From Nitrosopumilus sp. (GTDB taxonomy: Archaea > Thermoproteota > Nitrososphaeria > Nitrososphaerales > Nitrosopumilaceae), in assembly GCA_965197525.1 (NCBI GenBank), contig OZ240211.1:352001-416000 (forward strand): a DNA stretch of 64,000 nt, in the 5' to 3' direction. Each line of letters opens with the position of its first letter. Within the stretch, counting starts at the first letter, position 1. The position numbers and the translations under genes were made by a program. The notes below the pieces were generated by a model. That model had not been told where the DNA came from, did no database searches, and saw nothing but the letters and a program-made list of their open reading frames with translations. Positions 558-37,829 of the stretch are shown here, piece after piece.

Positions 558-3500
558 TCAATTCGTGGTGCTGACGGTGTAAGTATGATCAGCATCAGTA
601 GGTGCAGTGTTTGTAAGAGGATTATTTGCTGCGTCTACAATACCGTGCCCTGACGATACCAGATCAAGGTTGTATGTGCCGTCCTGTACAGCAGAGACTG
701 TCACGTAATACGTATTGCCGGAACCTGAGACTGATGTTACGGGGTTTGACGTACCGCTACTACTACCAGAATTGATCGTAAGCGTCCAGCTGTTCAGGGT
801 GCCGTCATCTGCAGATGCAAAGTTGTCGTTTATCTTCAAAGTCCAGGTACCAGCAATGGAGACGCCTGCAAAGTTTGGTGTGTATGTCTGGTCTATGTCA
901 TTGGCGCTGCTTCCAGAACGGTTGTGGACGGTCTTGGTTGTACCATCAGGTGCAACAAGATCTATCTTGAGGTCTCCTATGTACGTGTGGGAGACGTCCA
1001 CGGTGACAGAGACTGACGTAACAGTACCAGAGCCTGAAACTGTAATGGTATCTGTTATGGTGTTAGCTGCAGTTATGGCAATGGCAGGAGAACGTGTCTG
1101 TGTGAACTGGCCGGAATCTGCGCCAGAACCGGTTCCGCCCGTGCTATCAGAAGACAGGGCAAAGTCAGTCGTATCCACTCCGATGACGTTCTCGCTAAAG
1201 GTCACCTCGTAGACTAGCGTCTGGCTGTCTGTGTTTTGTGTAGCTGGACTGGACCGCTCAATTGATGATAATGTTGGTGCAGTGGTGTCAGAAGGTTCAG
1301 TGGTGTCAGCAGGTGCAGTATTGACGGTATACGTCTCGTCAGTACCTGTAGTTGGAGTCACGTTTGTTAGTGGATTGTTTGATTCGTCTTCGATGTCGTG
1401 CCCTGACGATACCAGATCAAGGTTGTATGTGCCGTCCTGTACAGCAGAGACTGTCACTTGGTACGTGTCACCAGAACCTGAGACTGATGTTACGGGGTTT
1501 GACGTATCACTACTGCTGCTACCAGAATTGATCGTAAGCGTCCAGCTGTTCAGGGTGCCGTCGTCGGCAGTTGCATAGTTGTCGTTTATCCTCAAAGTCC
1601 AGGTACCTGCAATTGAAACACCGGCAAAGTCTGGTGTGTATGTCTGGTCTATGTCATCGGCGCTGCCTCCAGAGCGGTTGTGGACGGTCTTGGTTGTACC
1701 ATCAGGTGCAACAAGATCTATCTTGAGGTCTCCTATGTACGTGTGGGAGACGTCCACGGTGACAGAGACTGACGTAACAGTACCAGAGCCTGAAACTGTA
1801 ATGGTATCTGTTATGGTGTTAGCTGCAGTTATGGCAATGGCAGGAGAACGTGTCTGTGTGAACTGGCCGGAATCTGCGCCAGAACCGGTTCCGCCCGTGC
1901 TATCAGAAGACAGGGCAAAGTCAGTCGTATCCACTCCGATGACGTTCTCGCTAAAGGTCACCTCGTAGACTAGCGTCTGGCTGTCTGTGTTTTGTGTAGC
2001 TGGACTGGACCGCTCAATTGATGATAATGTTGGTGCAGTGGTGTCAGAAGGTTCAGTGGTGTCAGCAGGTGCAGTATTGACGGTATACGTCTCGTCAGTA
2101 CCTGTAGTTGGAGTCACGTTTGTTAGTGGATTGTTTGATTCGTCTTCGATGTCGTGCCCTGACGATACCAGATCAAGGTTGTATGTGCCGTCCTGTGTGG
2201 CAGAGACTGTCACTTGGTACGTGTCACCAGAACCTGAGACTGATGTTACGGGGTTTGACGTATCACTACTGCTGCTACCAGAATTGATCGTAAGCGTCCA
2301 GCTGTTCAGGGTACCGTCGTCTGCAGCTGCATAGTTGTCGTTTATCCTCAAAGTCCAGATGCCTGCAATTGAAACACCGGCAAAGTCTGGTGTGTATGTC
2401 TGGTCTATGTCATCGGCGCTGCCTCCAGAACGGTTGTGGACGGTCTTGATGGTATCATCAGGGGCGATAAGATCTATCTTGAGGTCGCCTTTGTATGTGT
2501 GGGATACATCTATTGCGACAGAGACTGACGTAACAGTATCAGAGCCTGAAACTGTAATGGTATCTGTTATGGTGTTAGCTGCAGTTATGGCAATGGCAGG
2601 AGAACGTGTCTGTGTGAACTGGCCGGAATCTGCGCCAGAACCGGTTCCGCCCGTGCTATCAGAAGACAGGGCAAAGTCAGTCGTATCCACTCCGATGACG
2701 TTCTCGCTAAAGGTCACCTCGTAGACTAGCGTCTGGCTGTCTGTGTTTTGTGTAGCTGGACTGGACCGCTCAATTGATGATAATGTTGGTGCAGTGGTGT
2801 CAGCAGGTCAGTCAGAAGGTTCAGTGGTGTCAGAAGGTTCAGTGGTGTCAGAAGGTTCAGTGGTGTCAGCAGGTGCAGTATTGACGGTATACGTCTCGTC
2901 AGTACCTGTAGTTGGAGTCACGTTTGTTAGTGGATTGTTTGATTCGTCTTCGATGTCGTGCCCTGACGATACCAGATCAAGGTTGTATGTGCCGTCCTGT
3001 GTGGCAGAGACTGTCACTTGGTACGTGTCACCAGAACCTGAGACTGATGTTACGGGGTTTGACGTATCACTACTGCTGCTACCAGAATTGATCGTAAGCG
3101 TCCAGCTGTTCAGGGTACCGTCGTCTGCAGCTGCATAGTTGTCGTTTATCCTCAAAGTCCAGATGCCTGCAATTGAAACACCGGCAAAGTCTGGTGTGTA
3201 TGTCTGGTCTATGTCATCGGCGCTGCCTCCAGAACGGTTGTGGACGGTCTTGATGGTATCATCAGGGGCGATAAGATCTATCTTGAGGTCGCCTTTGTAT
3301 GTGTGGGATACATCTATTGCGACAGAGACTGACGTAACAGTGCCAGAATCTGGGACTGTGATGGTATCTGTTATGGTGTTAGCTGCAGTTATGGCAATGG
3401 CAGGAGAACGTGTCTGTGTGAACTGGCCGGAATCTGCGCCAGAACCGGTTCCGCCCGTGCTATCAGAAGACAGGGCAAAGTCAGTCGTATCCACTCCGAT

Positions 3501-34900: not shown

Positions 34901-37829
34901 TGTCAGCAGTGGTGTCAGCAGGTACAGTATTGACGGTATACGTCTCGTCAGTACCTGTGGTTGGAATCACGTTTGTTAGTGGATTATTTGATTCGTCTTC
35001 GATGCCGTGTCCTGACGATATCAGATCAAGGTTATACGTGCCGTCCTGTGTGGCCGAAACCGTTACTTGGTACGTGTCGCCAGAACCTGAGATCGATGTT
35101 ACGGGGTTGGACGTATCACTACTACTACTACTACCAGGATTGATCGTAAGCGTCCAGCTGTTCAGGGTGCCGTCATCGGCAGCTGCATAGTTGTCGTTTA
35201 TCTGTAAAGTCCAGGTGCCTGCAATGGAGACGCCTGCAAAGTCTGGTGTGTATGTCTGGTCTATGTCATTGGCGCTGCCTCCAGAGCGGTTGTGAACGGT
35301 CTTGGTTGTACCATCAGGTGCAATAAGATCTATCTTGAGGTCGCCTTTGTATGTGTGGGAGACGTCGACTGCAAGCGAGACTGACGTAACAGTGCCAGAA
35401 TCTGGGACTGTGATGGTATCTGTTATGGTGTTAGCAGCAGTTATGGCAATGGCAGGAGAACGTGTCTGTGTGAACTGGGCAGAGCTTGATCCGCCCGTGC
35501 TGTCAGAAGACAGGGCAAAGTCAGTTGTATCCACCCCGGTTACATCCTCGCTGAATGTAACTGAAAAGTCAAGGCTGGTTTCAGACGTGGTTTCAGTTGT
35601 AGGTGAGTTTCTAGTTATGGATATCAATGAGGGAGAGATAGCGTCAATCGTGTAGGTTTCATCAGGGTCAGGACTGGTATCAGTTAGTGCAATACCTGTA
35701 GAATCAAGGATGTCATGGTTGTTTGATATAAGATCCAATCCTATTGTACCACTGTTTGATGTTACATCTACTGTGACGGTGTAACTAGAATCAGAACCTG
35801 AGATGTCAGATACAGAACCTGTACCGGTGCCTGATACGGCAAAGTCAGATGTATCAACTCCAGTCACTGATTCGCTAAAGGCGACTGCAAATTCAAGTGA
35901 TGCAAGGGAGGTTAGTTCTGATGTAGGTGAGCTTCTGGTTATGGATGTCAACGAGGGGGCTGTAGTATCAATGGCGAATATAACTGTGTTTGAGACCAAG
36001 TTCTTGTTTTGTGCAAGATCGTCTACAGAGTCAGCAGGAATGAATATGGTAAATGTGTCAGCCGTTATTTCGCTTACGGTGAACTCGAATGTTTGATCAT
36101 TATCAATAGTGCCAAGATTAGAGACAGTGCCACTGGATACAACTATATCAGAGTCAGTAAACGTCGTAGAGTTTATCGATCCTCCAAAATCTACTGTAAA
36201 TGATAGGATCTGTTTTGAAGTGGGAGATGAAACATCAGTAGTAATTAGTGGTGTGAGTGATGAGATAGCGCTTACTGAAAATAATTCATCGGTGTTAAAG
36301 GTGGTGTCTGTCAGAACGCCAGATACAATTACTTGTATCATACGGTGATTATTGCCATTCTCAAAGACAGAGTTACCAGCTGCAGTCACAGTAACCTCAT
36401 ACACACCTGCATTAGTTGGTGCTTCCTTGAATGCCAGAGTGTCAGAACCAGACACTATCTCAAACAATGTAGAGTTACCACCTGTTCCAATTGCATATGT
36501 TGGGTTTTGTACTGCAAGTGCATCATTCTGTGGCGTTATATCAATGACGTTAAGTGAATCAGTATAAGAAAAGTCTACAGAATCCGGTGTAATGTACCAT
36601 GGGCCCAAGTTCTGGTCAAAGGCAATAGTGTAGTCGAACATGTCAAACATGGTGGTAACTGAGGAGACATCCCAGTTGGAGATATCACTGTTAAATGCGT
36701 TGGCACCGTCAAACATGTTGGACATGTCGCTAACTGAGGAGGTGTTCCAGGTAGAGATATCACCGTTAAATTTGAGGGCATCTTGGAACATCTCAAACAT
36801 GTTGGTAACAGACGAGGTGTCCCAGTTAGAGAGGTCTCCGTTAAACACTCTGGCATATTCGAACATGAATGACATGTTGGTAACAGACGAGGTGTTCCAG
36901 TTAGAGAGGTCTCCGTTAAATTCGTGGGTATTGACAAACATCTCAGACATGGTGGTAACAGACGAGGTGTTCCAGTTGGAGATATCACCGTTAAATTCGT
37001 GGGTATTGGCAAACATGGCAAGCATGCCTGTAACAGACGATGTGTTCCAAGTAGAGAGGTCTCCGTTAAACACTCTGGCACTGTTGAACATGTTTGACAT
37101 GTTGGTAACAGACGAGGTGTCCCAGTCAGAGATATCACCGTTAAATTGTTTGGCATGGAAGAACATCTCAAACATGTTGGTAACAGACGTGGTGTTCCAG
37201 TTAGAGAGGTCTCCGTTAAATTGGCTTGCAAAGCGGAACATGTTTGACATGTTGGTAACAGACGATGTGTCCCAATCAGAGAGGTCTCCGTTAAATTGTT
37301 TGGCATAACGGAACATGCCAGACATGTCAGTAACCTGTGACAGATCAGGTGCATCAGTGGCGTGGTAAGTCATCTGACTTGCACCGCGGAATGCATTCTT
37401 CATAGTAGACCACTGGATGTCCCCCCATTGGTTAATTGAGTGAAGTAATGTAGGTGTGGAGCCATTGCCGTCAAGATTTATCCGCGACAGGTCGCCAGTC
37501 ATGGTAACACGATAAGAGGCAGGTGTAGTGTATGTGTGTGTGACTGGGCCGTTAGAATTTACCGTGCTTGTGTCACCATCACCCCAATCTATAGTCAAAG
37601 TTCCTGCTGAATGTATCTTTACAGGTATACGTATCTCTTGGTTGATCCCAGTCGTAACCCACGTAGTCAGAAATGGATCATCATATGTTTGTGTTTGCGC
37701 GTAGGCATATATTGGAATTTCTGTGTATACAGTATCGTGTAATGAATCTAACTTGTCCACTAAAAACATGTCCAGTTGTGTTGCAGTCAACATACTGACA
37801 GATATCAAAAGTATAATGCTTAGAATCAT
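31966..37829 (-). CDS. Giant secreted protein C (~1950 aa): leader, BspA/DUF285 repeats, Ig-like domains, 5 Ig/P-domain modules; 1-nt frameshift at ~34387
   Basis: ORFs 34359..37931 and 31966..34230 join at a damaged (ACT)n tract; DPFLTTW...IDWGDG cap and FNGDLSNWxTSSVTNMxxMF repeats; ATG 37829 precedes the hydrophobic leader. Confidence 0.8.
31990..35600 (-). repeat. Array of 5 Ig/P-domain modules (723-740 nt period)
   Basis: Blocks at 32360, 33098, 33821, 34561 and 35302. Confidence 0.93.
36600..37340 (-). repeat. Nine to ten 75-nt BspA/DUF285 repeats
   Basis: 25-aa period FNGD[LI]SxW[ND]TSSVTxMxxMFxxAxx. Confidence 0.92.

Follow-up and report, generated by a model that had tools for sequence, protein, structure and literature searches.

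Three giant genes of a Nitrosopumilus archaeon, which differ entirely in their N-terminal heads, share one C-terminal tail built of tandem modules, and each of these modules is a single immunoglobulin-like (Ig-like) domain that is split by a complete P-domain. The genes lie in a stretch of 64,000 nucleotides (assembly GCA_965197525.1, contig OZ240211.1, positions 352,001 to 416,000 of the forward strand; hereafter "the window", numbered from its first letter), where they appear as large minus-strand frames: gene A (558-8369), gene B (22044-31806) and gene C (31966-37931). On balance, we consider it probable that the shared tail gives unrelated secreted heads a multivalent grip on one repeated ligand, and that the tails are kept alike by recombination.

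A P-domain nested within an Ig-like domain

The unit is 232-249 amino acids long and consists, in this order, of an N-terminal Ig-like half, a Ser/Gly hinge, the P-domain, a Ser-rich hinge and a C-terminal Ig-like half. It recurs with a period of 242-268 amino acids, which includes a linker rich in Pro, Thr and Asp. The split can be read from an uninterrupted parent domain in gene C, whose residues 4-45 and 53-106 align with module residues 1-42 and 177-231, respectively. Since the parent aligns to both flanks of the module, about 134 residues have been inserted in one loop. Against Pfam, the parent domain scores 23.5 bits with Big_12 (cut-off 27) and 15.5 bits with Big_5.

The insert itself is recognised as a P-domain (PF01483), a single module scoring 76.8 bits where the cut-off is 21. 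An AlphaFold2 model of one module (C-3), built with 27 homologues and having a mean pLDDT of 86.5, points in the same direction: Foldseek ranks Kex2, furin and the Aeromonas sobria protease (ASP) first for model residues 50-170, in each case through the P-domain. By VIA-align, the model superposes on the furin P-domain with Z 16.6 (root-mean-square deviation 1.6 A over 115 residues) and on that of ASP with Z 14.0, and its matches to carbohydrate-binding modules reach Z 8-9. A single Ig-like domain of the S-layer protein SbsC is matched by both flanks together, with Z 8.4-8.6 (model range 1..233, 91 aligned residues, 23% identity). Where convertases have the R-R-G-D-L motif, which is structural in those enzymes, modules of the main type have K-G-D or I-G-D and those of the diverged type (see below) R-G-D.

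Twenty copies behind three heads

Pfam places 20 PF01483 matches in the window, 7 in gene A, 8 in gene B and 5 in gene C. By open reading frame (ORF) piece these are four in 2808-8369 and three in 558-2717 (gene A), three in 25820-28876 and five in 22044-25811 (gene B), and two in 34359-37931 and three in 31966-34230 (gene C), with totals of 146-354 bits per piece. A repeat finder detected 18 copies, which recur every 723-804 nt and are 86-100% identical in the P-domain core, and full-length pairwise DNA identity among the 17 copies measured in a codon alignment was 80-100%. The two C-terminal copies of gene B (B-7 and B-8) are of a diverged type, having 54-61% DNA identity to the rest. More than half of the copies (12 of 20) belong to genes with no S8 protease domain, and the eight in gene B start >1,000 residues past the S8 domain, behind the PKD array.

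An earlier note on this DNA, made from the sequence alone, had proposed 20 copies divided 7/8/5 behind three unrelated heads (LVIVD propellers; a subtilase with PKD domains; BspA repeats), 18 of them near-identical in DNA, with an insert that is a P-domain mostly decoupled from the protease. The Pfam search returned the same counts, the heads were recovered by Pfam and repeat analysis, the repeat finder gave the same 18 copies with the other two diverged, and the insert both scores and is predicted to fold as a P-domain. The distances to the S8 domain given above likewise agree with the proposed decoupling.

The head of gene A comprises 13.6 units of a 156-nt repeat according to Tandem Repeats Finder (TRF). 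PF08309 is not listed by Pfam for gene A; the neighbouring LVIVD-positive gene at 8375-15184 scores 70.1 bits, and the gene A repeats are 40% identical to it over ~720 amino acids. This neighbour (minus strand, 2,269 amino acids, LVIVD and PKD, zero modules) is a separate gene, because it has its own stop and the following ORF has its own signal-like peptide; on these grounds we ruled out its inclusion in gene A as a first piece, A1. In it, LVIVD-type repeat blocks alternate with K319L-type PKD domains, as judged by Pfam matches.

Within its S8 domain, gene B retains the His and Ser motifs, but alignments place a Glu where Tk-SP and a paralogue have the catalytic Asp (V-A-V-L-E-L-G-G versus V-G-V-V-D-S-G in the paralogue, genome positions 491820-498053). 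The domain may therefore be a weakened protease or a pseudo-protease. The head of gene C matches PF03382 (DUF285) with 320 bits in three stretches, above the Pfam threshold, and Pfam also finds PKD ahead of its modules.

Base composition differs between these parts and the rest of the genome. In the LVIVD-repeat regions (window 5976-15184) GC content is 56% and GC content at third codon positions (GC3) is 62%, compared with a genome GC of 39.6% and a background GC3 of 36% (sd 8%), and module GC3, at 47%, also lies above that background. The raised GC3 of modules and LVIVD heads fits either import from GC-richer relatives or GC-biased conversion.

Features of genes A, B and C (window positions; all coordinates refer to the assembled sequence)
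Feature	Positions	Strand	Remarks
Gene A	558..8369	-	signal peptide, LVIVD-type propeller repeats, 7 modules; pieces A2 (2808-8369) and A3 (558-2807)
Gene A head, ~14 LVIVD-type blades	5976..8138	-	TRF, 156-nt period
Module A-1	5184..5906	-	
Module A-2	4383..5129	-	
Module A-3	3651..4382	-	marks an inter-gene conversion tract
Module A-4	2859..3596	-	
Module A-5	2055..2792	-	
Module A-6	1299..2036	-	
Module A-7	564..1280	-	terminal "cap" copy
In-frame TGA, gene A	2808..2810	-	in Thr/Pro/Glu-rich linker; 6-nt deletion relative to sister linkers
Gene B	22044..31806	-	signal peptide, S8 domain, PKD array, 8 modules, one Bact_surface_Ig-like domain
Gene B pieces	29389-31806, 28912-29370, 25820-28951, 22044-25937	-	4 pieces in assembly
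Peptidase_S8 domain, gene B	30535..31266	-	Pfam, 80.3 bits (cut-off 21.8)
K319L-type PKD array, gene B	28103..29979	-	period 264 nt, ~6-7 copies, 93% alike; two frame breaks inside
Module B-1	27368..28102	-	
Module B-2	26633..27367	-	
Module B-3	25919..26632	-	
Module B-4	25152..25886	-	
Module B-5	24426..25151	-	
Module B-6	23700..24425	-	
Module B-7	22992..23699	-	diverged type
Bact_surface_Ig-like (PF16403), gene B	22761..22967	-	Pfam; between diverged modules B-7 and B-8
Module B-8	22053..22748	-	diverged type, terminal
Frame break B1/Bx	29423..29424	-	one missing base, in PKD array
Frame break Bx/B2	28912..28951	-	garbled short duplication at PKD repeat boundary
Frame break B2/B3	25917..25927	-	11-nt insertion at module end, absent from all sister copies
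Gene C	31966..37931	-	signal peptide, PKD, DUF285 repeats, plain Ig-like domains, 5 modules
Gene C pieces	34359-37931 and 31966-34389	-	2 pieces in assembly
DUF285 (BspA-like leucine-rich) repeats, gene C head	36600..37406	-	Pfam; TRF period 75/150
Uninterrupted parent Ig-like domain, gene C	35652..35969	-	alignment to module
Module C-1	34908..35636	-	
Module C-2	34159..34895	-	split by C1/C2 frame break
Module C-3	33433..34155	-	unit used for structure model
Module C-4	32707..33432	-	100% identical to C-3 in codon alignment
Module C-5	31975..32694	-	terminal cap copy
Frame break C1/C2	~34385-34390	-	one base missing in (AGT)n Ser run

A genome-wide set of modules that evolve together

The genome is a single contig of 2.21 Mb (99% complete) and has 89 PF01483 matches. 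A hidden Markov model (HMM) of the module counts 84 complete nested units, spread over ~15 genes, and also detects many plain parent Ig domains, which form long arrays in other genes of this genome; together, module and parent-domain ORFs take up 8.6% of the genome. The window thus holds about one fifth of the genome-wide module set. The earlier note had described a system of three genes: the sharing of the module by unrelated heads stands, but its restriction to three genes does not. Elsewhere in the genome DUF285 heads predominate, alongside FG-GAP, PKD and PF16403 Ig-like domains and a second S8 protease. A hydrophobic signal-like segment opens every intact member, and each of these proteins ends directly past the last Ig half, with no C-terminal anchor. 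Intact frames elsewhere in the genome are 3,478-4,561 amino acids long and carry 5-9 modules, and those of a congener reach 4,383-5,783 amino acids; further broken module genes are present elsewhere in the genome as well.

In a tree of 84 modules from this genome and 65 from others, copies group by genome, and the copies of this genome fall in part into three exclusive clades, within each of which genes are intermixed. Module A-3 shares 98-99% identity with copies in gene B, compared with 85-93% with its own neighbours. Taken together, the clustering by genome and the identity pattern of A-3 show concerted evolution through gene conversion or unequal recombination across genes. Among the window copies, the ratio of nonsynonymous to synonymous differences (pN/pS) comes to 0.19 for the P-domain and 0.30 for the Ig halves, and since both values are well below 1, the units are kept by selection rather than decaying.

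Each gene closes with a module of a distinct "cap" type, which is similar from gene to gene (window 564-1280 and 31975-32694, minus strand; genome 314206-319038, 482854-491952 and 2030475-2034764), and two tail endings recur, ...HTYTVSTT(N/G) and ...DDQSYTVTATTP. Because of these two observations, tail ends seem to have been exchanged as whole blocks.

Distribution in other genomes

An exhaustive profile-free search of 1.84 billion representatives yielded 6,832 matches at E<=0.001 and 257 at E<1e-30, many of the latter spanning module residues 1-241 in one stretch. A word-indexed search gave >600 proteins, with DUF285, LVIVD, PKD, fn3, FG-GAP and Kelch heads. Judged by such sequence matches, the nested unit is common in public metagenomes. 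Among named species genomes it was found only in Nitrosopumilus, Cenarchaeum and metagenome-assembled genomes of other Nitrosopumilaceae. As to whether the arrangement is common in relatives, as the earlier note had asked, it is not widespread, yet not unique to this genome either: any PF01483 match at all occurs in 24 of the 251 Nitrosopumilaceae genomes that are >=90% complete, leaving 227 with none, and large expansions are limited to ~5 genomes of the family, with 89 (this genome), 48, 23, 17 and 13 matches. Several complete 1.4-1.8-Mb genomes of the genus have no PF01483 match.

Some bacterial sequences seem at first sight to match the whole module (query 1-237, 28-36% identity), but none was nested when parsed by the module HMM, and they represent either tandem plain parent Ig domains (positions 1-48, then 175-237) or lone P-domains. 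True modules do occur on two short contigs binned as Lysobacterales and Binatia; these are probably cases of mis-binning, since both group with Nitrosopumilus modules in the tree, the Lysobacterales copies nesting inside the clade. One search of public sequencing runs listed no RNA data set with the sequence; another listed a single sponge metatranscriptome, which shares a fraction of 0.07 of the words of the S8 head and which we count as evidence of neither expression nor habitat.

Frame breaks and neighbouring genes

In this assembly five frame breaks run across genes A, B and C. We checked them against contigs built independently from public sequencing runs of the same organism (Logan), which do not bridge the arrays and decided one break of the five. 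Independent contigs from two runs of one sample (depth 99 and 48) have one extra base after 29423, which restores the PKD frame, and this break is therefore an assembly error or a minority variant. At 28912-28951 the bin depth is 0 in two runs and 6.5 in a third, with no indel listed in the independent contigs. For the in-frame TGA of gene A we rejected stop-codon recoding, as it is a single case, created by the loss of 6 nt that the sister linkers still have. Copy number within the most identical arrays, especially that of gene C, is that of the assembly alone; one chimeric Logan contig connects gene C to gene B copies.

An IS110-family transposase (15989-17289, minus strand), located between the LVIVD gene and purL/purQ, is split in two ORFs (DEDD_Tnp_IS110 at 16666-17289 and Transposase_20 at 15989-16660), a frame break that lies outside the repeats. 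A DDE-type transposase (DDE_Tnp_4, 55133-56359, minus strand) lies amid housekeeping genes and adjoins the anthranilate synthase gene. Two ORFs immediately upstream of gene C (39551-42214, plus strand; 681 and 178 amino acids) have no Pfam match.

Comparison with known systems

The closest parallel is found in RTX adhesins of bacteria, in which ligand-binding domains emerge from split Ig-like domains (PMC12077191, PMC10865825, PMC5550230). As in AhLap, FrhA and MpIBP, a complete foreign domain leaves a loop of an Ig-like stalk domain within a giant repetitive surface protein; the RTX inserts are jelly-roll or lectin-like binding units, and the insert here is likewise a jelly roll. The differences are considerable, however. 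The present system belongs to an archaeon that has no outer membrane or type I secretion system (T1SS) and uses Sec-type signals, and the Pfam matches of the window genes include neither an RTX nor a haemolysin-type Ca-binding family. Its payload is a P-domain, and the same cassette is common to many genes. Every tail unit is split, with 5-10 per protein and 84-89 per genome, in contrast to one to three near the tip in RTX adhesins. Linkers are rich in Pro and Thr and presumably not rigidified by Ca.

With the kexin/furin convertases and the Aeromonas sobria protease (PDB 4omc, 1ot5, 3hjr/3wqb) the insert shares its family, PF01483, its fold (Z 14-16.6) and the family motifs around Gly-Asp-Leu and Leu-Asn-x-Trp-x-Leu. 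Unlike in those enzymes, the P-domain is not adjacent to a catalytic domain but is nested in another domain and repeated in tandem, and most of its carriers are protease-free. In clusters of the ESM Atlas, bacterial P-domains are paired with C1, M4 and M28 peptidases and with a transglutaminase-elicitor domain (PF16683), and among fibrillar adhesin-like proteins one survey (bioRxiv 10.1101/2021.12.07.471604) notes a P-domain-like cluster whose role, in binding or in catalytic support, is ambiguous. These bacterial non-S8 P-domains are mobile accessory modules too, but single, terminal and non-nested. P-domains away from S8 proteases, which the earlier note took to be unusual, are thus already common in bacteria as single C-terminal copies, although nested tandem arrays are not among them.

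The head families resemble a known repertoire: sponge-associated Thaumarchaeota are reported to be enriched in DUF285 leucine-rich repeats, LVIVD, EPTP-like and DUF5011/PF16403 Ig-like domains and to have an expanded set of extracellular S8 proteases (PMC7848895, PMC6790972). A term search of these two papers did not find "proprotein", and our literature searches returned no description of a P-domain in Thaumarchaeota or sponge symbionts, nor of PF01483 arrays. The earlier note's view that the arrangement had no prior description thus agrees with the literature searched as regards the arrangement as a whole, but split-Ig display as such is known from RTX adhesins. What is already known comprises the principle of split-domain display and P-domains detached from S8 proteases; what is new is the P-domain as payload, the archaeal lineage with Sec export and neither T1SS nor RTX, the splitting of all tail units, and the scale on which one cassette is shared across the secretome.

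Possible function of the shared tail

Genes A, B and C encode giant proteins with Sec-type export signals, each with a different N-terminal working head. Common to all three is a C-terminal tail of 5-8 modules, in each of which an SbsC/Big_12-like beta-sandwich carries a P-domain in a loop. Under the reading that we favour, this tail would act as a device for multivalent binding. The Ig halves would form a flexible string from which the P-domains project sideways as repeated binding units, giving every head the same avidity-based attachment to one repeated ligand, which would most likely be either a host-matrix glycan or proteoglycan or the envelope of the archaeon itself. The tails of the whole set are kept alike by gene conversion and unequal recombination. 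Binding is suggested here by analogy with the split-Ig rule of RTX adhesins, by the jelly roll shared with carbohydrate-binding modules and by a spacer argument: other parts of the genome already use the plain parent as a spacer, so the insert must add something.

Several considerations weigh against this reading. Rather than being a lectin, the P-domain of convertases serves to stabilise the catalytic domain, so the fold does not predict a ligand, and the matches of the model to carbohydrate-binding modules lie within the usual range of jelly-roll similarity. Moreover, all three genes are interrupted as assembled, and independent contigs refute only one of the five breaks.

The array might, alternatively, bind the S-layer or glycans of its own cell, as a non-covalent wall anchor that keeps otherwise soluble secreted heads on the cell, comparable to S-layer homology (SLH) domains or cell-wall-binding repeats, and have no host ligand. 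The signal-peptide-like N-termini, the lack of a C-terminal anchor and the invariably C-terminal position of the tail are all compatible with such self-anchoring, the Ig part is most similar to a domain of an S-layer protein (SbsC), and the presence of one tail on ~15 different proteins would suit a common address. It would be odd, however, for a general anchor to be wholly absent in 227 of 251 relatives that have the same envelope type, and we regard this explanation as unlikely. That the modules provide only length, protease resistance or solubility, the P-domains being purely structural, appears improbable to us. P-domains do stabilise in convertases, and this genome does use plain parent Ig domains as long arrays in other genes. 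More generally, tandem Ig-like arrays are often extenders (PMC7493085). Yet since the parent domain already acts as a spacer, ~130 extra residues in each of 84 copies need another reason, and by pN/pS it is precisely the P-domain that is the most constrained part.

One may also consider that these are decaying genes, i.e. pseudogenes of the kind seen in symbionts, or that copy number and breaks are products of repeat assembly. Five breaks in three genes, the additional broken module genes, the split IS110 transposase nearby and the 100% identity of some copies, which short-read contigs are unable to span, could all be read in this way. Against it stand the break that independent contigs contradict, the low pN/pS, the individual substitutions in copies, and the long intact frames both here and in the congener, so that we consider decay or misassembly highly improbable as a general explanation. 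Finally, the P-domains could bind S8 domains in trans, either the organism's own or those of a host convertase, in a contact like that of kexin/furin. The convertase P-domain fold and the S8 domains in two module genes are in keeping with such docking, but most module genes are protease-free and the S8 domains lie >1,000 residues away from the modules, which makes this scenario scarcely credible.

Beyond the multivalent grip that we favour, the cassette could be a lineage-specific "address tag" of the whole secretome, directed to one ligand in an animal host matrix or on the cell, in which case conversion among the 84-89 copies would retune at once the address of ~15 giant proteins that differ in their heads (leucine-rich repeats, propellers, subtilases). 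We put this forward tentatively, as a possibility that we rather doubt. If true, archaea would have their own counterpart of a common docking system, one that is non-cellulosomal, and it would be a key to the host life of some Nitrosopumilaceae.

Implications

The split-Ig display rule would extend from bacterial RTX adhesins to archaea, and to the P-domain as a payload, although this domain is generally regarded as an accessory of proteases. Such systems will probably escape notice where assemblies are fragmented. The compact 240-amino-acid unit can be expressed and tested directly. The cell-surface biology of ammonia-oxidising archaea is almost unknown, and if the tail does act as a multivalent binding device, it would be the largest single investment of a small genome (8.6% of its DNA) and a candidate for what determines whether these organisms attach or associate with a host.

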